From: a virus
Virus genome (UHGV): UHGV-0184459
Length of the DNA stretch: 24,949 bases
Strand: one strand, 5' to 3'
Made by a program: the position numbers and the translations under genes. The notes beneath the pieces were generated by a model. The model was not told the origin of the DNA. It saw only the letters and a list, made by a program, of their open reading frames with translations, and made no database searches. Below, piece after piece: positions 9,546-24,949 of the stretch. How positions within the stretch are numbered: position 1 is the stretch's first letter; every line of letters begins with the position of its first letter.

Positions 9546-11312
9546 ATGAACACCACACTGACACCCGCAGATCTCGATCCCCGTCGGCAGGCCATGCTGC
9601 TGTACTTTCAGGGATACCGCGTAGCCCGCATTGCTGAAATGCTGGGCGAGAAAGTTGCAACCGTTCACAGCTGGAAGAAACGCGACAAGTGGGGTGACTA
9701 TGGGCCGCTGGATCAGATGCAGCTCACCACCGCCGCACGTTACTGCCAGCTCATTATGAAGGAGCACAAAGAAGGGAAAGATTTCAAAGAAATTGACCTG
9801 CTGGCGCGCCAGTCGGAGCGCCACGCGCGGATCGGCAAGTTTAACAATGGCGGCAACGAAGCCGACTTAAACCCTAACGTCGCCAACCGCAACAAAGGCC
9901 CGCGCCGTCAGCCGGAAAAGAATGTTTTCACCGATGAACAGATAGAGAAACTGGAAGAAATCTTCCATTCCTCCATGTTCAACTACCAGCGCCACTGGTG
10001 GGAAGCCGGAAAAACCAACCGCATCCGCAACCTGCTGAAGTCACGCCAGATCGGCGCGACCTTTTACTTTGCCCGTGAAGCCCTGATTGACGCCCTGCTT
10101 ACCGGACGTAACCAGATTTTCCTTTCTGCCAGTAAGGCACAGGCTCACGTCTTTAAGCAGTACATCATCGACTTCGCCAAAGAAGTCGAGGTGGAGCTGA
10201 AAGGCGATCCGATGGTGCTTCCTAACGGGGCCACGCTTTACTTCCTCGGCACCAATGCCCGCACGGCGCAGAGTTACCACGGCAACCTGTATCTGGATGA
10301 ATATTTCTGGATACCGAAATTCCAGGAGTTGCGCAAAGTGGCTTCCGGTATGGCTATTCACAAGAAATGGCGACAAACCTATTTTTCCACGCCATCCAGC
10401 CTGACCCACAGTGCTTATCCGTTCTGGTCCGGTGCGCTGTTCAATCGTGGGCGCAACAAAGCCGATAAGGTGGACATCGACCTGTCCCACAGCAATCTGG
10501 CCCCCGGCCTGCTGTGCGCAGACGGGCAGTACCGCCAGATAGTCACTGTGGAAGATGCGGTGCGCGGCGGCTGTAACCTGTTCGACCTCGACCAGTTGCG
10601 CATGGAGTACAGCCCGGACGAATACCAGAACCTACTGATGTGCGAGTTTGTGGACGATCTCGCGTCCGTGTTTCCGCTCAGCGAGCTGCAGGCGTGCATG
10701 GTGGACAGTTGGGAAGTCTGGACCGACTTTCATGCTCTGGCCCTGCGCCCGTTTGGCTGGCGCGAAGTGTGGATCGGTTATGACCCGGCAAAAGGTACGC
10801 AGAACGGCGACAGCGCCGGATGCGTGGTGGTGGCACCGCCAGCCGTGCCGGGCGGTAAGTTTCGCATTCTTGAGCGTCACCAGTGGCGCGGGATGGACTT
10901 CCGCGCCCAGGCTGACGCAATCAAAAAACTGACCGAGCAGTACAACGTGACCTACATCGGCATCGACTCAACCGGCGTTGGTCACGGGGTTTACGAGAAC
11001 GTGAAAGCGTTCTTTCCTGCCGTCCGGGAGTTTGTCTACAACCCCAACGTTAAAAACGCCCTGGTACTCAAGGCCTACGACATTATCAGCCACCGCCGTC
11101 TGGAGTTTGACGCCGGACATACCGACATTGCGCAGTCATTTATGGCAATCCGTCGCGCCACCACCGCCAGTGGCAACCGCCCGACCTATGAAGCCAGCCG
11201 CAGCGAAGAAGCCAGCCACGCCGATCTGGCATGGGCAACGATGCACGCACTGTTTAACGAACCGCTGCAGGGCGAATCCGCCAATACCAGCAATATTGTG
11301 GAGATTTTTTGA
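9546..11312 (+). CDS. P: Terminase large (ATPase) subunit gpP
   Basis: 588 aa; N-terminus ...LDPRRQAMLLYFQGYRVARIAEMLGEKVATVHSWKKRDKW matches P2 gpP family. Confidence 0.9.
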   Translation: MNTTLTPADLDPRRQAMLLYFQGYRVARIAEMLGEKVATVHSWKKRDKWGDYGPLDQMQLTTAARYCQLIMKEHKEGKDFKEIDLLARQSERHARIGKFNNGGNEADLNPNVANRNKGPRRQPEKNVFTDEQIEKLEEIFHSSMFNYQRHWWEAGKTNRIRNLLKSRQIGATFYFAREALIDALLTGRNQIFLSASKAQAHVFKQYIIDFAKEVEVELKGDPMVLPNGATLYFLGTNARTAQSYHGNLYLDEYFWIPKFQELRKVASGMAIHKKWRQTYFSTPSSLTHSAYPFWSGALFNRGRNKADKVDIDLSHSNLAPGLLCADGQYRQIVTVEDAVRGGCNLFDLDQLRMEYSPDEYQNLLMCEFVDDLASVFPLSELQACMVDSWEVWTDFHALALRPFGWREVWIGYDPAKGTQNGDSAGCVVVAPPAVPGGKFRILERHQWRGMDFRAQADAIKKLTEQYNVTYIGIDSTGVGHGVYENVKAFFPAVREFVYNPNVKNALVLKAYDIISHRRLEFDAGHTDIAQSFMAIRRATTASGNRPTYEASRSEEASHADLAWATMHALFNEPLQGESANTSNIVEIF

Positions 11313-12346
11313 TGGGAAAGAGTAAGAAGAACCGAGCTGCGGCGACGAAACAGATCCAGCTTAAAAGTCAAACTACAGCCGAAGCATTCAGCTTCGGCGA
11401 TCCCGTTCCTGTTCTGGACCGCCGTGAACTGCTGGACTATGTGGAATGCGTACAGATGGACCGTTGGTATGAGCCGCCCGTCAGCTTTGACGGACTGGCG
11501 CGCACCTTCCGCGCCGCCGTGCATCACAGTTCCCCGATTGCAGTAAAGTGCAACATTCTGACCAGTACCTATATCCCTCATCCGCTGCTCAGCCAGCAGG
11601 CTTTTTCGCGTTTTGTGCAGGACTATCTGGTATTTGGTAACGCCTACCTGGAGAAACGCACGAACCGCTTCGGTGAAGTTATCGCCCTTGAACCTGCCCT
11701 GGCAAAATACACCCGACGCGGGTTAGACCTGGATACCTACTGGTTTGTGCAATACGGTATGACCACTCAGCCATATCAGTTCACGAAAGGCAGCATCTTT
11801 CATCTGATGGAACCGGACATCAACCAGGAGATCTACGGCCTGCCCGGTTATCTTTCTGCTATTCCATCCGCCCTGCTCAACGAGTCTGCCACGCTGTTCC
11901 GCCGCAAGTATTACATTAACGGCAGTCATGCAGGCTTCATCATGTATATGACCGACGCCGCGCAGAACCAGGAAGATGTGAACAACCTCCGCAACGCGAT
12001 GAAAAGCGCCAAAGGTCCAGGCAACTTCCGCAACCTGTTTATGTACTCGCCTAACGGCAAAAAGGACGGGCTTCAGATCATCCCGTTGTCAGAAGTCGCA
12101 GCGAAAGATGAATTTCTGAACATCAAGAACGTGAGCCGGGACGACATGATGGCGGCGCATCGTGTGCCGCCACAAATGATGGGGATAATGCCTAATAATG
12201 TCGGGGGGTTTGGGGATGTTGAGAAGGCGGCGCGTGTTTTCGTACGTAACGAACTTACACCACTCCAAGGCCGCGTGATAGAAATTAACGAGTGGCTGGA
12301 TGATGAAGTGATTCGCTTTAACCCATACCTGACTGAGGAAGATTAA
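11312..12346 (+). CDS. Q: Portal protein gpQ
   Basis: ATG at 11312 overlapping the P stop (TGATG); 344 aa; follows P as in the P2 P-Q operon. Confidence 0.9.
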   Translation: MGKSKKNRAAATKQIQLKSQTTAEAFSFGDPVPVLDRRELLDYVECVQMDRWYEPPVSFDGLARTFRAAVHHSSPIAVKCNILTSTYIPHPLLSQQAFSRFVQDYLVFGNAYLEKRTNRFGEVIALEPALAKYTRRGLDLDTYWFVQYGMTTQPYQFTKGSIFHLMEPDINQEIYGLPGYLSAIPSALLNESATLFRRKYYINGSHAGFIMYMTDAAQNQEDVNNLRNAMKSAKGPGNFRNLFMYSPNGKKDGLQIIPLSEVAAKDEFLNIKNVSRDDMMAAHRVPPQMMGIMPNNVGGFGDVEKAARVFVRNELTPLQGRVIEINEWLDDEVIRFNPYLTEED

Positions 12347-12433
12347 CGCTCACCTGACCTATCCTTCATATCAACCGCTCTTCCTGGGGCGGTTTTTACC
12401 CCCACTTCAATAGACGGTTTAGGGATGACAATC

Positions 12434-12453
12434 AAAACGCTCCTAAGAGCGTT
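12434..12453. terminator. Short hairpin (AAACGCTC-loop-GAGCGTTT) between convergent Q and the Toprim-like gene; possible bidirectional terminator
   Basis: 8-bp inverted repeat read directly; flanked by T-rich tracts on both strands; overlaps the stop codon of the 12443..13162 gene. Confidence 0.35.
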
Positions 12454-13162
12454 TCTGTTTACGGTTTGACTCTATTTGTTTTTTTAGCTGGATAAGCCTT
12501 TCAACTAACTCAAACACTTTTGTACTTGGATTATCAGTATCGCTAGCTTCAGCAGCCTGTAAACTTCTCTTAGCCCTAAGGACTACTTCATTTAAATCTT
12601 TTGACTCTAAAGCGTTTAGGGTTTTCTGAAAAATCCCTTTTGAGCCTTTCTCATAGTCCTTAATATATTTTCTTAACTCATTTACAATTTGATTTCCTGA
12701 ACTATTACCAGGTAAATTTCTAAATGCCTTTGTCGAATAGGTATAATGTAGAAGTAACCAATATTCAAAACAAGGTACTGAATTCACAGTAAACCAAGTT
12801 GAGCTTGGTTTACTTCTCCTGATAGCGTCAAGCGCTGCCATGTAATCAGAGTGGGCATCCTTATCAATCACTACAAAGATTTGATCATAAGGAGCCCCCT
12901 GTTCAGTCATTTTTTTATGCTGTTCTTTTGCATGACGAACAACACACATAGGACTAGAGCCACATTCTCCAGTTACATCAATTACACTTGCTGTAAGTAA
13001 TTCAAAATGATTTATCAAATCCTCAAAGTAATTTGGTTCAGTTTTTTTACCCTCACAAACAATTAATATTTTAGCGAGAGGGGATTTTATTGCATTACGT
13101 CTTGCTAGATCCTTAGCCGTTTTAGGGGCACGTTTCTTTTTGAATAAATCCTCGCTTCCCAT
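12443..13162 (-). CDS. Toprim-like (RloB/AbiLii-like) protein, candidate nuclease partner of the upstream ATPase
   Basis: 239 aa; N-terminal ILIVCEGKKTEPNYF (conserved Glu) and downstream IFVVIDKDAHSD (DxD) fit a Toprim/RloB pattern; C-terminal NPST motif; ATG 1 nt after the ATPase stop; AT-rich codon usage unlike the phage backbone. Confidence 0.6.
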   Translation of the reverse strand: MGSEDLFKKKRAPKTAKDLARRNAIKSPLAKILIVCEGKKTEPNYFEDLINHFELLTASVIDVTGECGSSPMCVVRHAKEQHKKMTEQGAPYDQIFVVIDKDAHSDYMAALDAIRRSKPSSTWFTVNSVPCFEYWLLLHYTYSTKAFRNLPGNSSGNQIVNELRKYIKDYEKGSKGIFQKTLNALESKDLNEVVLRAKRSLQAAEASDTDNPSTKVFELVERLIQLKKQIESNRKQKRS

Positions 13163-13163
13163 A

Positions 13164-14429
13164 TCAAATCCCCGTCAATTTCTTGATGAACGGCAATGCT
13201 CCATACCGACCGTCTAGGTATGCGGCTTCTAAATTTTCTCTTCCTTTCCTTGGACTAAAATCAGTCAATGGATATAGATTAGTTTCACTGAGTTCATTTT
13301 TCTCACAAAACCAAACTTGATCACGTCTAAAAATGCTTTGATTCAGAATGGATGTTTCATGTGTTGAGAAAATTAACTGCGCACCTTTTTTATTAGTAAC
13401 CGGACTATTAAAAAGATTTACCAAGAAACTAACCAACTTTGGATGCAATGTATCGTGAAGCTCGTCGATTAATAGTACATATCCATTATCGAGCGCATCT
13501 AACCATGGACCAGCTAAAGAAAAAAGCTTTTGAGTGCCATGAGATTCCTCTTCAAGAGAAAAACTTACCGGCTCACCTTTATCGTTATAATGGACAGTAG
13601 TAACATCAAAAACTTCTTTATCCTTCATATTAGAAATAACGATTTTTTTGATATCATCTGGCATATCAGATGGCAAATCATCTGGATTAAATTTTTCTCT
13701 CTTAACTAAAACATCATCAATGCCAATATCTGCAGCTTGCAAAAAATTCAAGATATCTTTCTTCATATCCTCGGTGCAGCGTTTAGCGGAGAATGTATTA
13801 GCCCATCCATTAATTCCAGAAAGTCTCAGTGTTTTTTTAAACCAAGTAAAAACAGGCTTAAGCTGCTCGCTATTTAATTGAACAGCTGTAGACAAGAACA
13901 GGGCATTATTTCTAGTTGAACGCTGCCAAACTTGTTTTTCACCAAGTAGTGATGCGCCAAAATCCCAATCATATTCCTGCTTCTCTTCATCCCAAGCTCT
14001 GAAATACCACTTTTGAGGCCTTCCTTTTGGGTACGCAAAGAGCCATTCATCAATAATTCTTTCATTTGTAGCAGAAAAACCAAATTGATACCGGGTGCCC
14101 TCTGCAATAAAAGTAACTTCAAATTCAGTAGGTTTTTTAATTGAATCTGAATCAAGCTTGAAGGGGAATACGGGAACCTCTTCACCAGCCTGAGAGTTAG
14201 ATGCAGAGTGGATAACTAAATCCATCATAGCCCTGACAGCCAGAAGTACATTCGACTTGCCCGCTGCATTCGCACCGTAAATAACAGCTGACTTTAGAAC
14301 ATTAAGGTTAACGTTTCCCTCTACTGTAAAGATATTCTCTTCTAACTCGTTACTTTTGTTAGCAATAAGTGAAAGTGTTTGTTTGTTTTTGATTGAGAGA
14401 TAGTTCTCAACATTGAATTCAATAAGCAT
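13164..14429 (-). CDS. AAA/ABC-type ATPase (AAA_15/AAA_21-like), candidate anti-phage defence ATPase
   Basis: 421 aa; Walker A GANAAGKSN, Walker B/D-loop LLIDELHDTLHP, H-loop-like FSTHETSIL; strong AGGAGG Shine-Dalgarno; AT-rich. Confidence 0.75.
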   Translation of the reverse strand: MLIEFNVENYLSIKNKQTLSLIANKSNELEENIFTVEGNVNLNVLKSAVIYGANAAGKSNVLLAVRAMMDLVIHSASNSQAGEEVPVFPFKLDSDSIKKPTEFEVTFIAEGTRYQFGFSATNERIIDEWLFAYPKGRPQKWYFRAWDEEKQEYDWDFGASLLGEKQVWQRSTRNNALFLSTAVQLNSEQLKPVFTWFKKTLRLSGINGWANTFSAKRCTEDMKKDILNFLQAADIGIDDVLVKREKFNPDDLPSDMPDDIKKIVISNMKDKEVFDVTTVHYNDKGEPVSFSLEEESHGTQKLFSLAGPWLDALDNGYVLLIDELHDTLHPKLVSFLVNLFNSPVTNKKGAQLIFSTHETSILNQSIFRRDQVWFCEKNELSETNLYPLTDFSPRKGRENLEAAYLDGRYGALPFIKKLTGI

Positions 14430-14607
14430 TTTTACCCTCCTGGTGGTTGAATAATCTTAGTTGCAAAAGCAACAAACGTCACCAACAACCAAATCTTAAG
14501 GCATTTTATGACAAAAAACGTCAAAATGGTACTCATAAAATGAATTTAAACCAGTTTATTAGACTTAACATCTAATATTTACGGCTAGCTTTCGCCCTGA
14601 ACGCGCG

Positions 14608-14626
14608 CTCGTATCCCCGCCACGCC
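14608..14626. other. Candidate cos cohesive-end site (reverse orientation), GGCGTGGCGGGGATACGAG
   Basis: Reverse complement of 14608..14626 matches the first 13 nt of the 186/P2 19-nt cohesive end as I recall it (GGCGTGGCGGGGAAAGCAT / GGCGAGGCGGGGAAAGCAC), then diverges; lies between the packaging genes and the tum/A region as expected. Confidence 0.35.
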
Positions 14627-14829
14627 TGCCCGCTTTATGTAGTGGTTTTCATGCACCTGCATGATCTACGCAAAAGCCCGCCAGTTCTGGCAGGCCTTAG
14701 CAAAAACGATCCTCAAACGATCATGCGATCTCATGCGGCATAGACATGCACCACAGAGCTAACGCCTCGCACAGCTCGTTGTTCAACCTTGCTGACGCCA
14801 GAAGCAAGTTCAGACGCCAGCAACGTTTC

Positions 14830-15063
14830 TTAATGCAGCCAGCTGTCGTCTTCCCACACCTTCTGCATAATTTTCATCACTTGTTTTCTTTCTTCGTCCA
14901 GTTGCAGTCCGGTCAGTTCCACACCGTTAGAGCTACCTTTGCGGATACGAATTACCGTTTTGGGATACAGGGGGCGCAGATTGCGGTAAAGCTCGGATTC
15001 AAGGGCGTCCAGTGTAGACTGGCTAACCTTCTGCTCTTTATCGATCATTATTTCAATGCGCAT
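14830..15063 (-). CDS. DinI-family protein (Tum C-terminal-like, SOS-inducible antirepressor module)
   Basis: 77 aa from ATG 15063 with GAGGTG Shine-Dalgarno; MRIEIMIDK...LDALESELYRNLRPLYP...LTGLQLDEERKQVMKIMQKVWEDDSW parallels E. coli DinI as recalled. Confidence 0.75.
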   Translation of the reverse strand: MRIEIMIDKEQKVSQSTLDALESELYRNLRPLYPKTVIRIRKGSSNGVELTGLQLDEERKQVMKIMQKVWEDDSWLH

Positions 15064-15073
15064 AAAAGTCACC

Positions 15074-15262
15074 TCAGCTGATGACATCCATTGAGCGGTT
15101 GTATTCGTGGGTTCTGATTTTTGCCATGAGTTCATCTGTCAGTTCAGAAACCCACTGCAGGGCCAGCCCCTTCTCTTCATCACTACACTCACTAGCCGCT
15201 ACAAGCTTAAGAAAAAAATCAATGCGCTGGAGCTTCAAAGACTCCAAAAAATAGTCCTGCAT
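15074..15262 (-). CDS. Small protein upstream of and translationally coupled to the DinI-like gene (possible Tum N-terminal-equivalent)
   Basis: 62-aa ORF, ATG 15262 with AGGAGG Shine-Dalgarno; its stop TGA overlaps the Shine-Dalgarno of the DinI-like gene; LexA box about 45 nt upstream. Confidence 0.45.
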   Translation of the reverse strand: MQDYFLESLKLQRIDFFLKLVAASECSDEEKGLALQWVSELTDELMAKIRTHEYNRSMDVIS

Positions 15263-15414: not shown

Positions 15415-17829
15415 TTAATACAGGTTTCGCCACTTATCATCTTCCTGCAAACGCTGGTTCCGATAGAAGATACGCAGGCCTGCTCCTGACGGAATACTGC
15501 CGCCGCGAAGCAGTAAATCGACCTCTTTCTCGCTGCCATCAAATCCCCTGGACTTCAGTTCATACACGAGCTGCTGTCGCTGATGATCTGTAATTCGCTG
15601 TTTGTAGTCTTTACGCCGTTTCGGTTTCACAAGGCGTAACCTTGCTGCCAGTTCCCGGCGCTCTTTTTTGCTCATACTGTGCAGGTAATCGTGCAACTCC
15701 TTGTCATCCATGCGGGTGATATCCGTTCTGGTATCTCCATCAGCTGATTTGTCTTTCCCTTGTTGGTACAAATTTTCAGCAAGGGGACAGTTATTGCCAC
15801 GAGTCCAAGGGGCGCAAGCGCCCTGGTCGGCTGCCGCCTCCTGAACGTCAACGGCTTTACGAACCATTTTCCACTTCACTGCATGAGTGCAGATCTTGCC
15901 CTCTGCAATGGGTGACCAGATGCCATAAATACGAATGCCGTGATCGCCATAGGCGGTCGGCTCTTCGTTGATTTCATAAGCGGTTCTGATGAGGTGATAT
16001 TTACGGGGAACCAGTACGCCGCCCTGCTTCATGATGTAGGTGGCAAAACAACCAGCATCAGCAGCAGCCAGAATGGCATCAAGACGCGGGTTATCCAGTA
16101 CCGGCGCACCTGCTTTTTTGTCACCCTGTTGCCTTGCCGCCTGACCAGCCAGCAAGCGAAGTTCACGGTAAGCCTGACGCCCCGGAATACCAAAGAAGCG
16201 GAATTGCTGAACACGATGCAGAGACGCCCAGGCATTCACGTATTCAGCGTTATCACGCAGAGATTTACCCGTTTCCTTGCTGATCTCGCCAGCCAGACCA
16301 CGACCGTCAATGTTCTTACTGATATATTTCGCGATGTAGCTTGTCGGCGTTCCTTTGCGCGGGTTAATCAACTCAGACTTAAAGCGCGGCCCAGTGTTAT
16401 TGCCCAGCTCCTCGCGGTCTTCACGGATGGCAAACTTACGCAGTAATGCAGTGATGGCACGGCGGTCTTTTTTGCGCATGAAACACAACAGGTGCCAGTG
16501 AACTGTGCCATCATGATGCGGCTCAGCCACCCGCACGCCATACCAGCGCAACCCGGCTTTGTGCATCGCCTTACGAAATGCAGCAAACATGCCGACCAGA
16601 TAATCGCTGCTTTGTCTTACCGTCGCGTTTGTCCAGGTCGGGTTTGGTCTGCCGTTATTTAGCGTGGAATGGAAACGCGACGGACAGGTGATAGTGTAGA
16701 AAACGGCGCAGTCACCGCGCATTTCCGCGATAAGCTCCAGACCTTTAACACAGGCCATCATCTCATTGCGGCGATGCGCAGGGTTGCTGCTGCTGGCGTT
16801 TACCACATCCTCCATGTCCAGCGTGTCGCCGTCTTCGTTCACCAGTTCATGAGAACGGAAAAACTCCAGCGACTTACGGCGCTGCTCACGTTTATGCATC
16901 ACGGCTTCATAGCTGACATAAGGAGATGCTTTTTTGCTGACCAGGCAAACAGCGCGCAACTGCTCTTCCCGCCATTCGCAACGCATCTTCCATAATTTCC
17001 GATACCACCAGTCGGCGCACAACATACGCGCCAGCGAACCCGGAATGAGTTCATAGGGCACGGGTTTACGGCGGTTTCTTTTCCGACGGAGTTGCTCAAA
17101 CGCAGGTGGGATGACATCCAGACGCAGGGTTTCCGCTGCCACCTTTTCCCATGTCTTGCGGATTTCTTCTGGCTTAACGTCATCGGTGGCATACAAATCA
17201 CCACAAGCTGCATCAAGGCACATACTCATATGCGCAGCTACCAGGGTGGACAGGCGTTTCACCTGATCCTGACTCATTTCAGGCAGGATCAGCAGGCCGT
17301 CCAGCCCTTCATGGCTTGCCATAAAGCGAAAAGATGCAGATAGCTGACTGTCGCGTACATGCTCCAGTCGTTCCAGACATGGCTTAATCGTCTCACGTAA
17401 ATAGCGGGAATAAGCCTTTGGCCTGCCCAGGCTGCTGAAGTATTCAATACGTTGCATCAGCGGCTTGCTGATATGGGAAGGCTGGGCGTTGACGTCCGCC
17501 AGAATGACCATGTCTGAATTAAAACGCTGCTGCTCATGCGCCAGCTTTGCCCGGCTAATGAGCTTATCCTGCTCCATTTCGCGCTGGACAGGATCACGTG
17601 ATTCATTAAAGAAATAACGCTCCCAGACCTGATCACTCAGTGCCTCGCGGCGCAACTGTTCCTGCTCGTTATCGGCAGCGTACAGAGTGATCAGGTTTGA
17701 AAGCGTAGAAACCGGCGCAACTTCCGCCGGGTCCAGATAAGGGTTAATGGCCTTTTTCGGGCTGTTCCATGAGAATGCTGCGGCAGCCTCGTTAAAGCCG
17801 CAGCAGTTGTTCATATCGGCATGACTCAT
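15415..17829 (-). CDS. A: Rolling-circle replication initiation protein gpA
   Basis: 804 aa; HUH motif ([10 protein letters not shown]) and tyrosine motif ([10 protein letters not shown]); size and position as P2/186 A. Confidence 0.9.
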
Positions 17830-18683
17830 GCACGTACTCCGTACACGGCAGAACTATCCACGCCACGCGAATAATCAAATCCCATCCAGCAGCGCGGCCC
17901 GGAAACAGCAATGATTTCTGTTGCTGATTTACCCTCGCCAGCTGCCACACCGATGCTGCGTTTTACCTTGATATAGTGGTGAGTAAAATTGCGATACAGC
18001 GAACGGATCAGGGATGTGTCACTGTTAGAAACAATGACCGGATGTCCTTCTGATGACCGATGTTCAAGAACGGATGCCAGGTGATACTGGTCATCTTCAG
18101 TGAAACCATCAGTGTGATAGCCGGAAAACGTACCGTCATATGGCGGATCGCAATACACCACATCTCCCGCCTTCAACATCGCCAGCGTTTCATCAAAGCT
18201 GGCGCAGATAAACGTTGCTCGCTGGGCTTTTTCTGCAAATGTGCGAAGTTCTTTTTCAGGGAAATACGGATTTTTATAATTACCGTAGGGAATGTTGAAA
18301 TGCCCGCTCTTGTTATAGCGACATAAACCACGGTAACCGTGACGATTGAGATACAGGAAATATACCGCTTTCATGAAATCAGTAATTTCAGTTGAGCAGT
18401 TAAACTCCTGCCTTATGTTGTAATAAGCCACCTCCCTGTTTGCGATCTCAAATAAAACTCTGGCGCGAGATATAAACGATTCACAATCAGCGGCAACCTT
18501 TTTATAGAGGTTGATTAAATCAGGATTAATATCCGCAACCAGATAGCTGGGATAATCCGTTTCCATCATCACAGCACAGGAACCCGAGAAAGGTTCAACC
18601 AGTCGCGGGCCAGCAGGAAGGTATTTTTTCAGTTCTGGCATAATGGCGGTTTTATTTCCCGCCCATTTCAGGATGGTGCTCAT
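17826..18683 (-). CDS. dam: Dam-type DNA N6-adenine methyltransferase
   Basis: ATG 18683 ([11 protein letters not shown]...) with GGAGGTG Shine-Dalgarno; SAM-binding region EPFSGS and catalytic DPPY motif; ATGA overlap with the A start. Confidence 0.85.
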
Positions 18684-18907
18684 ACAGCACCTCCGTTGTA
18701 ATGTTTGCCTTTCAGTTCTGCGATTTCCTGACAGGTAATGCAAAGCTGCACTCCCGGAATGGCGCGGCGTCGTGCTGGCGGAATTGGCGCTTCACATTCA
18801 ATGCAAAGTACGCGTGACACGCCCGGTGATTTGGCACGGGCTGCACGGATATGGCGCTGGCGTTCTTCTTCAACGCGCTGCTGTACGAGATCCATTGCAT
18901 CAGCCAT
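18680..18907 (-). CDS. TraR/DksA-family C4 zinc-finger protein
   Basis: 75 aa; C-x2-C-x17-C-x2-C (CIECEAPIPPARRRAIPGVQLCITC). Confidence 0.7.
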   Translation of the reverse strand: MADAMDLVQQRVEEERQRHIRAARAKSPGVSRVLCIECEAPIPPARRRAIPGVQLCITCQEIAELKGKHYNGGAV

Positions 18908-20829: not shown

Positions 20830-21426
20830 ATGTCAACATCAAAGTACCCAAGTGAGATCAAAATAAATCCCAATAAAGGTGGTAAGGCTGCGATTGAGCG
20901 ATTAGTCGAAGCCTATGGCTTTACGACACGACAGGCTTTAGCTGATCACTTGGAAGTATCAAAAAGCACACTAGCGAACAGGTATTTGCGGGATACATTT
21001 CCTGCTGACTGGATAATCCAATGTGCTCTTGAAACAGGAACCTCCCTCAAATGGTTAACTACCGGACAAGGCCTTAAGCAAAGCTCGCTGACAGCAGCTA
21101 CAGAAGAGCTTGTTAAGTTTCGCCTTGCCGCAGGCAAAATGATTGAAGACGGTTCATATGTCTTCGATTCATCATTTCTTCCTGCAAACCTTTCATCACC
21201 AATTGTTGTTCAGGATGGACTCGTCACATACATTTGTGATCAAAAATTTTCTGAAGTACTTGATGGAAACTGGTTAATCAATATCGACGGAACCTATTCC
21301 ATTCGAAAAATCACAAGGCTTCCTAAAGGAATGATTAAAATTACAACAGCAGAGAATAGCTTTGAATGTGCATTTTCTGATATTGAAGTGGTTGCTTGTA
21401 TAAGAAGTACAATAGTCTCGAATTAA
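20830..21426 (+). CDS. cI: CI immunity repressor (phage 186 type)
   Basis: 198 aa; N-terminal HTH region (ERLVEAYGFTTRQALADHLEVSKSTLANRY) and C-terminal domain; divergent from apl/cII as in 186. Confidence 0.8.
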   Translation: MSTSKYPSEIKINPNKGGKAAIERLVEAYGFTTRQALADHLEVSKSTLANRYLRDTFPADWIIQCALETGTSLKWLTTGQGLKQSSLTAATEELVKFRLAAGKMIEDGSYVFDSSFLPANLSSPIVVQDGLVTYICDQKFSEVLDGNWLINIDGTYSIRKITRLPKGMIKITTAENSFECAFSDIEVVACIRSTIVSN

Positions 21427-21446: not shown

Positions 21447-23123
21447 ATGAATTCATTTGCCATCGTTATACTCTTATTAGCATTTCTCGCCCCTGTTCTA
21501 GCTGTAATATTATTTAAACAAAGTAAAAAACACAAAGCGGCTATAGATAACCTGACAGCTAACAACATAGCCCTTTCTAACCAACTGATTGAAAATCAAG
21601 AAAAACTAGCACAGACCGTACGAGAATTATCAGAGCTTGAAGGGCGAGCAGCACCATTGTGGCAATACGAAGAATTGCACAGCGCAGTAATGGATGCAGA
21701 GAATAAGATAAAAAATGCGGACTCAATAGCCAAGCAAAAAATAGATGAAGCCCAAATTAAGGCAGCTAAAACAGTAAACGAAGCAAATTATCAAGCTCAG
21801 ATGACAATAAGCAACGCTAATAGCGAAGCTATAGCAATCACCAAAGACGCTCGCGATGCACGCCTGAAAGCCAAAGAACGTCTTGATAATGCTAATAATA
21901 AAGCAAATGAGCTAATCTCAAATGCTAATGACAATGCAGTAAAAATTATTTCTGATGCAGAAGAAAGAGCAAAGGAGATTGCTGGTTCAGCATATGAAGC
22001 TAAAGAGTTTGCAGAAAAATATGAAGCAGTTGCAAAATCAATGAAAAATAAAATTGAAGGTTATGGTGATGAATGGATCATCCCTAACCGTAGTGTACTT
22101 GATGAGCTGGCAGAAAATTATGAATTTACAGATGCAGGCAAGGAATTACAAAAAGCCAGAGAGTTAACCAAATCATTAATAAAAACTAATAAAGCTGCTT
22201 CGTGTGATTATGTTGAGCAAAAGAGGCGTAATACTGCCATAAACTTTGTTTTGGATGCCTTCAATGGAAGAGTTGACAGTATTTTATCAAAAGTCAAACA
22301 CAACAATTTTGGAAAACTTTCCCAAGAAATAAAAGATGCATTTCAACTAGTAAATTACAATGGCTCTGCCTTTAGGTCCGCAAAAATAAGTGACATCTAT
22401 CTTCAGGCAAGACTCAACGAGCTAAAATGGGGTGTAGCAGTTAATGAAATTATGCTCGAAGAAAAAGAAGAGCAAAGAAGGATTAAAGAACAGCTTCGTG
22501 AAGAGGAAAGAGCTCGTAGAGAATATGAAAAAGCGATAAAAGAAGCTGAAAAAGAAGAAAAAGCTATTCAGCAAGCTATAAATAAAGCAACGAAAGAACT
22601 TATGCTTGCAAATGAAGAACAACGCTTAGCTTTAGAGCAAAAAATAGCTGAACTACAGTTAAAATATGAAGAAGCTGAAGCTAAAAATCAACGAGCTATT
22701 TCTATGGCTCAACAAACCAGATCAGGCCACGTCTATATCATTAGTAATATTGGTTCATTTGGCGAAGATGTATATAAAATTGGAATGACACGCCGCCTTG
22801 AACCACTTGATCGTGTTCGTGAACTCGGAGATGCTAGTGTTCCTTTTTCGTTCGATGTTCATGCGATGATTTATAGTGATGATGCACCATCATTAGAAAA
22901 CCATCTGCATAAAGTTTTCAACGAAAAGCAGGTCAATAAAATTAACTCACGAAAAGAGTTTTTTAACGTAAATTTAAAAGAAATTAAATCAGTTATTGAA
23001 GACATGAACATCAACGCCCACTGGACAATGTTTGCAGAGGCGAAAGAATATAGAGAGTCTCTAGCTATTGAGCAGGAGCGCAAAGCAGCCACTTCCGCCA
23101 ACGATGAACTACATGTTGCTTAG
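21447..23123 (+). CDS. Membrane-anchored coiled-coil protein with DUF4041-like and C-terminal T5orf172 (GIY-YIG-like) domains; cargo gene
   Basis: 558 aa; N-terminal TM helix (FAIVILLLAFLAPVLAVILF), long Lys/Glu/Ala-rich coiled coil, C-terminal GHVYIISNIGSFGEDVYKIGMTRRLEPLDRVRELGDASVPFSFDVHAMIY...LENHLHKVF matching the T5orf172 pattern; strongly AT-rich. Confidence 0.7.
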   Translation: MNSFAIVILLLAFLAPVLAVILFKQSKKHKAAIDNLTANNIALSNQLIENQEKLAQTVRELSELEGRAAPLWQYEELHSAVMDAENKIKNADSIAKQKIDEAQIKAAKTVNEANYQAQMTISNANSEAIAITKDARDARLKAKERLDNANNKANELISNANDNAVKIISDAEERAKEIAGSAYEAKEFAEKYEAVAKSMKNKIEGYGDEWIIPNRSVLDELAENYEFTDAGKELQKARELTKSLIKTNKAASCDYVEQKRRNTAINFVLDAFNGRVDSILSKVKHNNFGKLSQEIKDAFQLVNYNGSAFRSAKISDIYLQARLNELKWGVAVNEIMLEEKEEQRRIKEQLREEERARREYEKAIKEAEKEEKAIQQAINKATKELMLANEEQRLALEQKIAELQLKYEEAEAKNQRAISMAQQTRSGHVYIISNIGSFGEDVYKIGMTRRLEPLDRVRELGDASVPFSFDVHAMIYSDDAPSLENHLHKVFNEKQVNKINSRKEFFNVNLKEIKSVIEDMNINAHWTMFAEAKEYRESLAIEQERKAATSANDELHVA

Positions 23124-23205: not shown

Positions 23206-24258
23206 ATGGCAGTACGAAAACTAACCACAGGGAAATGGCTTTGCGAATGTTACCCCGCCGGACGAAGTGGGCGTCGTGTGCGTAAACAATTCGCTACCAA
23301 AGGCGAAGCACTGGCTTTTGAGCGCCACACGATGGAAGAAACCGAAGCAAAGCCCTGGCTGGGTGAATCAGTGGATCGTCGAACACTGAAAGACGTGGTT
23401 GAGCTATGGTTCAAACTACATGGTAAATCTCTGACAGCTGGGCAGCATGTCTATGACAAATTGCTGTTGATGGTTGACGCTCTGGGCAATCCTCTTGCAA
23501 CCGATCTCACCTCTAAAATGTTTGCCCACTATCGAGATAAACGCCTGACAGGCGAGATCTACTTCAGCGAGAAATGGAAGAAAGGAGCAAGCCCGGTCAC
23601 CATTAACCTGGAGCAAAGCTATCTAAGTAGTGTTTTTAGCGAACTATCCCGTCTGGGCGAATGGTCGTATCCGAACCCACTGGAGAACATGCGAAAATTC
23701 ACCATCGCAGAAAAAGAGATGGCATGGCTTACCCATGAGCAGATTGTTGAATTGCTGGCTGATTGCAAACGTCAGGACCCAATTCTGGCACTGGTAGTTA
23801 AGATATGCTTAAGCACAGGCGCACGCTGGCGTGAAGCCGTAAATCTTACCCGCTCACAGGTGACCAAATACCGAATTACCTTTGTCAGAACGAAGGGGAA
23901 GAAAAACAGAAGCATCCCTATCAGTAAAGAGCTTTACGAAGAGATCATGGCGCTTGATGGGTTCAATTTCTTCACAGACTGCTATTTTCAATTTTTATCC
24001 GTGATGGAAAAAACGTCTATCGTGCTCCCTCGCGGTCAACTCACACACGTTCTGCGCCATACGTTTGCGGCGCACTTCATGATGTCGGGTGGAAACATTC
24101 TGGCCTTACAAAAAATTCTCGGACACCACGATATAAAAATGACTATGCGTTACGCACATCTGGCACCGGATCATCTAGAAACGGCGCTCCGTTTCAATCC
24201 TCTGGCAACGCTGCCAAGTGGCGACAAAGTGGCGGCAGCGGTTGGCATTACCCCGTAA
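23206..24258 (+). CDS. int: Tyrosine integrase (P2/186 family)
   Basis: 350 aa; conserved catalytic regions GARWREA (Arg), HVLRHTFA (His/Arg), MRYAHL (Tyr); adjacent to att region. Confidence 0.9.
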   Translation: MAVRKLTTGKWLCECYPAGRSGRRVRKQFATKGEALAFERHTMEETEAKPWLGESVDRRTLKDVVELWFKLHGKSLTAGQHVYDKLLLMVDALGNPLATDLTSKMFAHYRDKRLTGEIYFSEKWKKGASPVTINLEQSYLSSVFSELSRLGEWSYPNPLENMRKFTIAEKEMAWLTHEQIVELLADCKRQDPILALVVKICLSTGARWREAVNLTRSQVTKYRITFVRTKGKKNRSIPISKELYEEIMALDGFNFFTDCYFQFLSVMEKTSIVLPRGQLTHVLRHTFAAHFMMSGGNILALQKILGHHDIKMTMRYAHLAPDHLETALRFNPLATLPSGDKVAAAVGITP

Positions 24259-24362: not shown

Positions 24363-24899
24363 CTACCCTGCAACCCTCTCAACCATCCTCAAAATCTCCT
24401 CGCGCGATAGCGGCTTACGGTCGGTGACAAAATGCAGCGTCATCCCCTCAATAAACGCATCAAGCGCGCGGGCGGTTCCGGGTTCAAACCATTGTTCGAG
24501 CGTTTGCTGACTGCGCTGCATCCAGTTTTGCATTACCGTTTTTAATAGCGGTTTTCGGCTAGCCAGCGCGTAGAGCTGGTACATCAGCTCCATGTTATCC
24601 GGCGTTGCAACCTGTGAGCTGTAGATCATATCGGTGATAGCCTGGCATGCGCCCGGAGCATCACTAACATCGCTAAAAAATGCCTGATATTGCCGGGACA
24701 TGATCTCAGTAAAACTGCTGAACGCCTCCAGTAACAACTCATCAATTCCTGAAAAATAGTAGGTCATCGATCCCAACGGTACCCCGGCAAGGGTAGCAAT
24801 TTTGCGGTGCGTAACAGCATGTATTCCGTAAAGTTTCACCGCCTCCAGCGTGGCCTGGATAATTTTTTCTCGCCGTTGCGGATCGTTAGCGCGACGCAT
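24363..24899 (-). CDS. TetR-family transcriptional regulator (host gene flanking the prophage)
   Basis: ATG 24899 ([49 protein letters not shown]...) typical TetR N-terminal HTH; the listed ORF start at 24929 is a TTG. Resembles an E. coli TetR regulator (possibly RcdA/YbjK) but I cannot confirm the identity. Confidence 0.8.
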
Positions 24900-24949
24900 G
24901 TCATTTCCTCTCTCTGCAATTGTGTACAAATGTACACAACCTTGCTAAT

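Follow-up and report, generated by a model that had tools for sequence, protein, structure and literature searches.

The 24,949-nucleotide (nt) stretch of UHGV virus genome UHGV-0184459 (the window, meaning the whole stretch of DNA analyzed) is a P2/186-like prophage that carries two AT-rich genes between its portal gene and cos, which raises the question of what this pair encodes and what it does for its carrier. An earlier reading made from the letters alone (the sequence-only reading) had proposed a split ATPase and Toprim-like defense cassette of the OLD, AbiL, or PARIS kind; our analysis supports this proposal and resolves it to AbiL, equivalent to the RloA/RloB family. The cassette is probably a two-gene anti-phage system of the AbiL (RloA/RloB) type, which a P2/186-like prophage holds as exchangeable cargo at a hotspot. 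Both genes lie on the minus strand. The abiLi/rloA-like gene (13164..14429; 421 amino acids [aa]) encodes a Rad50/SMC-type ABC ATPase that presumably acts as sensor or regulator, and the abiLii/rloB-like gene (12443..13162; 239 aa) encodes an RloB family protein that is presumed to be the effector and is putatively a Toprim-like metal-dependent nuclease. Their sizes and the 1-nt gap between the ATPase stop and the RloB ATG had been read in this way before, and both the open reading frame (ORF) list and the junction sequence (...GGG GAT TTG A/T/ATG GGA, or TGA-T-ATG) agree.

Profile searches had been proposed as a check on both proteins, and these returned AAA_21 and RloB (PF13707) as strong Pfam matches. 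The ATPase matched AAA_21 with an E value of 7.8e-39 (135 bits against a cutoff of 27), and the small protein matched PF13707 with an E value of 2.7e-35 (122.8 bits against a cutoff of 31.5) over profile positions 1-195 of 195. DUF4435 and the Toprim/OLD models had also been named as possible matches of the small protein, but neither was found. Among PADLOC models, the ATPase matched PDLC02335 AbiLi over residues 1-418 (E value of 1.1e-100, 334.9 bits), and the small protein matched PDLC02337 AbiLii over residues 9-237 (E value of 1.6e-29) with a partial profile span (15-99 of 170); the remaining matches of the small protein were marginal ones to PDC-M12B. The pair shows what the PADLOC/DefenseFinder definition of AbiL names, namely, the AbiLi model, the AbiLii model, and adjacency on the same strand, as well as what defines RloA/RloB, with PF13707 above its gathering score and an AAA_21 ATPase immediately upstream of RloB. 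All 53 of the 53 aligned homologues of the small protein matched PF13707, and identical proteins at NCBI are labeled "AAA family ATPase" and "RloB family protein." The strong Pfam and PADLOC matches of both proteins together identify the family as AbiL/RloAB. The window contains no hsd genes, and the pair therefore lacks the type I restriction-modification (R-M) linkage of RloA/RloB, a linkage that belongs to the history of the family and is not obligatory. No Lactococcus record was found among the best 40 of 189 plasmid matches.

PARIS, OLD, and Gabija were excluded because there was no DUF4435 match, no fusion, and no helicase gene. For PARIS, the 53 RloB homologues gave no match to DUF4435 (PF14491) at an E value of ≤10, and there was no PADLOC match to AriB. 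The ATPase does match the PADLOC model of AriA, a 304-position model that covers the same residues (48-363) as Pfam AAA_21, and we take this match as that of a generic AAA_21 profile. A class 1 OLD protein was rejected on the basis of the two separate ORFs, the lack of a PF20469 match, and an hhalign probability of 0.4 against P2 Old. Gabija was rejected with unfused domains, no helicase ORF in the slot at 12298..14593, and neither GajA nor GajB among the PADLOC matches shown.

The ATPase belongs with the Rad50/SMC-like ABC ATPases, and its nucleotide-binding site is complete. The motifs that had been quoted for it are present and fall on invariant alignment columns: Walker A (G52/N54/A55/G57/K58), the signature (E295-S296-x-G298-T299), Walker B (D322-E323), and the H-loop (H357) do not vary in 47 homologues. 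Its AlphaFold2 (AF2) model, with a predicted local distance difference test score (pLDDT) of 86.8, retrieved Rad50, SbcC, Septu PtuA, retron-associated ATPases, and Thermus OLD in Foldseek at 1e-10 to 1e-8, and the AriA and AriB structures were not among the top structural matches. By sequence the protein shares ~61% identity with Neisseria proteins, among them one annotated RloA. Many plasmids of 3.5 to 6.9 kb from Klebsiella, Escherichia coli, Enterobacter, and Salmonella encode an ATPase ~33% identical to that of the cassette, one of them annotated abiLI.

The sequence-only reading had placed the cassette between portal and cos, and this is where it lies, with the portal gene at 11309..12346 and the cos cohesive-end sequence at 14608..14626 on the minus strand. 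The latter, GGCGTGGCGGGGATACGAG, and its upstream flank align with annotated P2 cos (GGCGAGGCGGGGAAAGCAC; cosR/cosL and the adjacent flank) and provide the context for the slot boundary. The base composition of the cassette is foreign. Gene GC content is 0.37 for the ATPase and 0.36 for RloB versus 0.52-0.57 in the portal and terminase genes, GC content at third codon positions (GC3) is 0.31 and 0.26 versus 0.62-0.70 in the same flanking genes, and regional GC is 0.36-0.38 over 12501..14500 versus 0.53-0.61 in the packaging genes, figures that agree with the earlier remark that the cassette is more AT-rich than its phage neighbors. A blastn comparison with the sister prophage of E. coli WP4-S18-ESBL-08 showed that homology stops at 12297 and restarts at 14594, and the exchangeable unit is therefore 12298..14593. 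The slot of that sister prophage holds a gene for a 381-aa PIN-domain protein (L011 3197..4342).

The earlier reading would sit poorly with a gene pair that is core to all related P2-like phages, and the cassette is not distributed in this way: of 5426 complete E. coli genomes, megablast located the whole cassette in 1, that of ETEC4091 (98.5% identity), versus 1276 of 5426 for the adjacent ~100-nt cos segment. Klebsiella phage ST13-OXA48phi12.1 is the only phage record with the cassette, which it carries at the same position. The gpA-gpQ, cos-adjacent locus of P2-like phages is a validated defense hotspot (PMC9122126; PMC13586616), and supplementary file 6 of PMC9122126 catalogues "hypothetical + DinI + AAA_21 + RloB" at the P2 hotspot. 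The cassette has this location, between replication gene A and portal gene Q and adjoining cos, and the hotspot argument of the sequence-only reading holds in that slot content varies between near-identical prophages at what corresponds to the published gpA-gpQ hotspot (PMC9122126). The cassette is exchangeable cargo of this cos-proximal hotspot. It lies on the Q side of cos, whereas in P2 itself old and tin are on the A side and only ~140 nt separate cos from the tQ terminator. In the ETEC4091 prophage, an extra ~1.2-kb insertion with two hypothetical genes (L001 8456..9448) falls between window positions 14751 and 14759, on the A side, and both cos sides are thus variable.

The Toprim label of the RloB protein is moderately supported. 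The Toprim-like motifs that had been quoted for the 239-aa protein are present on conserved alignment columns: within CEGKKTE, residues C36, E37, G38, K40, and E42 are on invariant columns, and within the DNPST motif P212 is invariant and D210, N211, and T214 are nearly so. Residues E37, E42, D100, D102, H104, E133, W135, H139, and K172 are invariant in the 53 RloB homologues. The predicted structure (pLDDT of 88) has a beta-alpha-beta-alpha-beta-alpha-beta-alpha core with a four-stranded parallel sheet (strands 32-37, 58-63, 94-100, and 123-129), in which E37 comes after strand 1 and D100-x-D102 after strand 3, the Toprim arrangement, and an invariant acidic cluster of E37, E42, D100-x-D102, and E133, together with H104 and H139, lies at the C-terminal edge of the sheet. 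By eye, and at the motif level only, P2 Old and RloB share a motif order (LLVEGKTE...VDGKGS...ILADCDF and LIVCEGKKTE...VTGECGSS...VVIDKDAH, respectively). Several comparisons weigh against the Toprim and nuclease assignment. The layout of strands and residues agrees with a Toprim fold, but Foldseek found nothing in the PDB at an E value of ≤1e-3 with the RloB model; the hhalign probability of 0.4 was that of the RloB alignment against full-length P2 Old; hmmscan of the 53 homologues against Pfam found no Toprim-clan model at an E value of ≤10; and 38 of 300 shuffles aligned as well as RloB did with the Toprim region of P2 Old (Smith-Waterman). The OLD-Toprim homologue search returned 3 fragments, and neither family profile retrieved a relative of solved structure when searched against PDB sequences. 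We regard RloB as Toprim-like and probably a metal-dependent nuclease, an assignment that is likely but not proven.

Residues 1-30 of RloB form a basic tail that is modeled with low confidence yet strongly conserved (M1, G2, L6, F7, R11, L19, and R21), and which may dock onto the ATPase as a peptide or act as an arm that binds nucleic acid. An RloB-type protein of hotspot family 90 (PMC9122126) was considered as a relative and rejected: the profile probability was 1.2 with only EG..TE and DxD aligned, and the ATPases were unrelated by BLASTP, which makes family 90 a different and very distant lineage.

The relatives of the cassette are numerous and are found in varied settings. The exact cassette proteins occur on 81 and 161 contigs, with the listed accessions from E. 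coli, and their 90% clusters reach Salmonella, Klebsiella, Cronobacter, and Enterobacter. In Serratia fonticola and Serratia marcescens, with RloB identities of 48% and 71%, respectively, diverged RloAB pairs occupy the same P2 slot, while a diverged pair in Proteus is at the end of a lambdoid prophage and another in E. coli EC1515 adjoins a prophage integrase, near a neighboring element whose ATP-dependent nuclease and UvrD-family helicase form a Gabija-like pair; the EC1515 pair is also present in 14 other E. coli genomes. In Cellvibrio, an RloAB pair lies between Wadjet and a type III R-M system. Other relatives, with 52% RloB and ~59% ATPase identity, are located between hsdS and hsdR. Such loci in Alloalcanivorax and marine metagenome contigs (L006..L009) read hsdM-hsdS-rloA-rloB-hsdR, downstream of a TniQ gene (Tn7-like element) and beside a CBASS operon of the SAVED/CD-NTase kind. 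In every locus examined, the ATPase gene precedes rloB with a gap of ≤12 nt or a called overlap. A search of 1.84 billion representatives by profile found 10,658 clusters (50% identity) at an E value of ≤1e-3, and among the best 150 of these nearly all proteins are stand-alone and of ~200-250 aa, with none long enough for an ATPase fusion.

Both cassette genes are under strong purifying selection. Compared with the copy in Klebsiella phage ST13-OXA48phi12.1 (91% DNA identity), the ratio of nonsynonymous to synonymous divergence (dN/dS) is 0.057 in the ATPase gene and 0.086 in rloB, with a synonymous divergence (dS) of 0.31 for the cassette genes. We reject the possibility that the cassette is a pseudogene or decaying remnant, since its ORFs are intact and dN/dS is <0.1. 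A 164-nt upstream region (14430..14593, minus strand) lies within the swapped segment and travels with the cassette. It includes a Shine-Dalgarno sequence, AGGAGG, at 14436..14441 before the ATPase ATG, and a candidate weak promoter, the best found by eye being GTGACG-N17-TAAGAT at 14482..14454 (8/12 match). The last ~110 nt before the ATG (14430..14540) differ from the Klebsiella phage copy at 4 positions, which, set against the dS of 0.31 in the genes, argues for a conserved regulatory function and suggests that this leader is a conserved promoter, operator, or leader. An AT-rich promoter region had been proposed at 14430..14600, of which the strongly conserved leader stands but no consensus promoter was called; a consensus scan of the region found no sigma-70 match of ≥9/12, a point against expression of the system from its own promoter. 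The hairpin that had been proposed to bracket the pair on its other side is a real fold at 12434..12455 (minus strand), with a 9-bp stem that overlaps the rloB stop codon and holds the TAG in its loop, but its z-score of -2.2 is modest (energy of -12 to -13 kcal/mol) and it was not called in a terminator scan; it is possibly a weak terminator. A repeat scan of the cassette found short chance-level pairs only, and an Rfam search of the whole window gave zero matches.

AbiL has been grouped with systems that pair an ABC ATPase with a TOPRIM protein (PMC11464382; PMC13064643). The best-understood of these models is PARIS, in which an AriA hexamer sequesters the AriB nuclease until a trigger such as Ocr frees it (PMC11464382; PMC12409363) and tRNA is cleaved. 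We hypothesize that the cassette may function similarly: a lysogen would express both proteins from the cassette's own upstream region, with an oligomer of the ATPase keeping the RloB nuclease inactive and sensing infection. A product of an incoming heterologous phage would then alter the state of the ATPase such that RloB is freed or activated, and cleavage of nucleic acid by RloB would stop phage production through abortive infection or growth arrest. Some relatives sit inside type I R-M operons, as PrrC and RloC also do, which suggests anti-restriction proteins as candidate triggers. In two pairs from two other species, AAA partners neutralize TOPRIM_OLD toxins (PMC10440598), and Fusobacterium nucleatum AbiLii is toxic in E. 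coli (PMC3985639). Counting against our proposal, F. nucleatum AbiLi failed to neutralize AbiLii and Lactococcus lactis AbiLii was nontoxic (PMC3985639), and the sequestration model is hence not established for the AbiL family; we also found no published phenotype for this cassette or for any enterobacterial RloAB pair. No mechanism of AbiL/RloAB was found described in the literature.

The target most likely to be cut by RloB is tRNA, a choice made by analogy that we hold at about even confidence, because both PARIS AriB (PMC12409363) and P2 Old (PMC12445682) are tRNases. The second choice, which we hold only tentatively, keeps the same family and defense role for the pair but has the effector nick or degrade phage or host DNA, as is reported for Gabija GajA and, in vitro, for OLD nucleases of class 1 and class 2. 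The sequence offers no means of telling an RNA target from a DNA target. However, of the ATPase-coupled Toprim effectors, AriB and P2 Old are the two whose in vivo substrates are known, and a published table lists L. lactis AbiL as acting "after transcription" (PMC13064643), neither of which favors DNA as the target.

The tightly coupled, bicistronic organization of the pair could also be that of a toxin-antitoxin addiction module whose main effect is to keep the prophage or the slot stable, without a meaningful part in phage defense, a reading that would draw on the toxicity of F. nucleatum AbiLii (PMC3985639) and on NetFlax, which places AAA/TOPRIM_OLD pairs in the toxin-antitoxin network and reports neutralization for two of them (PMC10440598). 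We find this improbable. AbiL was discovered through a phage resistance phenotype, deletion of either single gene of PARIS is nontoxic (PMC9122126), and a gene order in which a small effector follows a large ATPase fits defense modules, as do the defense island and R-M contexts; furthermore, a prophage needs no addiction at one freely exchanged cargo slot. Equally doubtful is a role as an R-M accessory that guards against anti-restriction in the manner of PrrC/RloC and is inert or decaying without type I R-M, which would suit the relatives between hsdS and hsdR and the hsd position that gave the family its name ("R-linked ORF"), but not a window without hsd genes, two intact genes with a dN/dS of <0.1 in the prophage lineage, or the common occurrence of stand-alone pairs.

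Within the preferred reading of the pair as an AbiL-type defense system, a more specific and speculative idea is that RloAB/AbiL is an independently evolved functional analogue of PARIS and PrrC, in which RloA would guard against phage anti-restriction or DNA mimic proteins and, when triggered, release RloB as a Toprim tRNase that has a tRNA specificity of its own. RloB might then be tethered to the ATPase by its conserved basic N-terminal tail, and such a guard role would explain the relatives located between hsdS and hsdR. If this idea is true, the copy in the E. coli prophage would offer a convenient system for working out a mechanism that has stood open since 1999.

The cassette can be compared with four described systems. 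Like AbiL of the L. lactis plasmid pND861, it is a two-gene operon on a mobile carrier, with an AAA_21-type ABC ATPase followed by an RloB family protein; the carrier there is a lactococcal plasmid and here a Gram-negative P2-like prophage, and the likeness was drawn through the PADLOC models. It resembles RloA/RloB of Campylobacter and Neisseria type I R-M loci in its end-to-end PF13707 match and in its ATPase, with the identity to Neisseria noted above, but is stand-alone prophage cargo unlinked to hsd genes. With PARIS it shares the split into an ABC ATPase and a small Toprim-type effector, and PARIS is often found in P4 and P2 hotspots; the effector there is DUF4435 (AriB) and here RloB. 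P2 Old occupies the same hotspot in the same phage family and also combines an ABC ATPase with a Toprim nuclease, and it has the motif pattern hhhEGK-TE ... DxD in common with the cassette, but it is a single 586-aa polypeptide encoded on the A side of cos, whereas the cassette is split into two genes on the Q side, and the sequence similarity between them is not significant.

As a genomic finding, the cassette is ordinary and confirms known behavior of the P2 hotspot: the family, the hotspot, and the domain arrangement at the P2 locus are already catalogued, and the domains are annotated in public databases. Its value is as a tractable native E. coli prophage copy, with its own regulatory region, of a very large family without a solved mechanism or structure. 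It offers a handle in the host in which PARIS and P2 Old were solved and could show whether tRNA cleavage is a general output of ATPase-coupled Toprim effectors.

The rest of the window has the gene layout of a P2/186-like prophage, with terminase (9546..11312), DinI (14830..15135), replication endonuclease (15415..17829), CI repressor (20830..21426), and integrase (23206..24258) genes in addition to the portal gene. It also encodes tail, lysis, and capsid genes, a Dam-type methylase, and a CII regulator, and the annotation of near-identical loci agrees with these assignments. The methylase gene (17826..18743, minus strand), upstream of the replication gene, encodes an orphan adenine methyltransferase of the D12 class, typical of 186/Fels-2-like phages. 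A second AT-rich cargo gene (21447..23123, plus strand; GC of 0.37 and GC3 of 0.27) lies between the CI repressor and integrase genes and encodes a 558-aa protein with DUF4041 and T5orf172/MUG113 domains that matches PADLOC PD-Lambda-1 at 2e-120, a match that indicates that the prophage carries two defense systems in two different hotspots. Beyond the integrase, a TetR-family regulator gene (24363..24929, minus strand) is probably host DNA flanking the attachment site.

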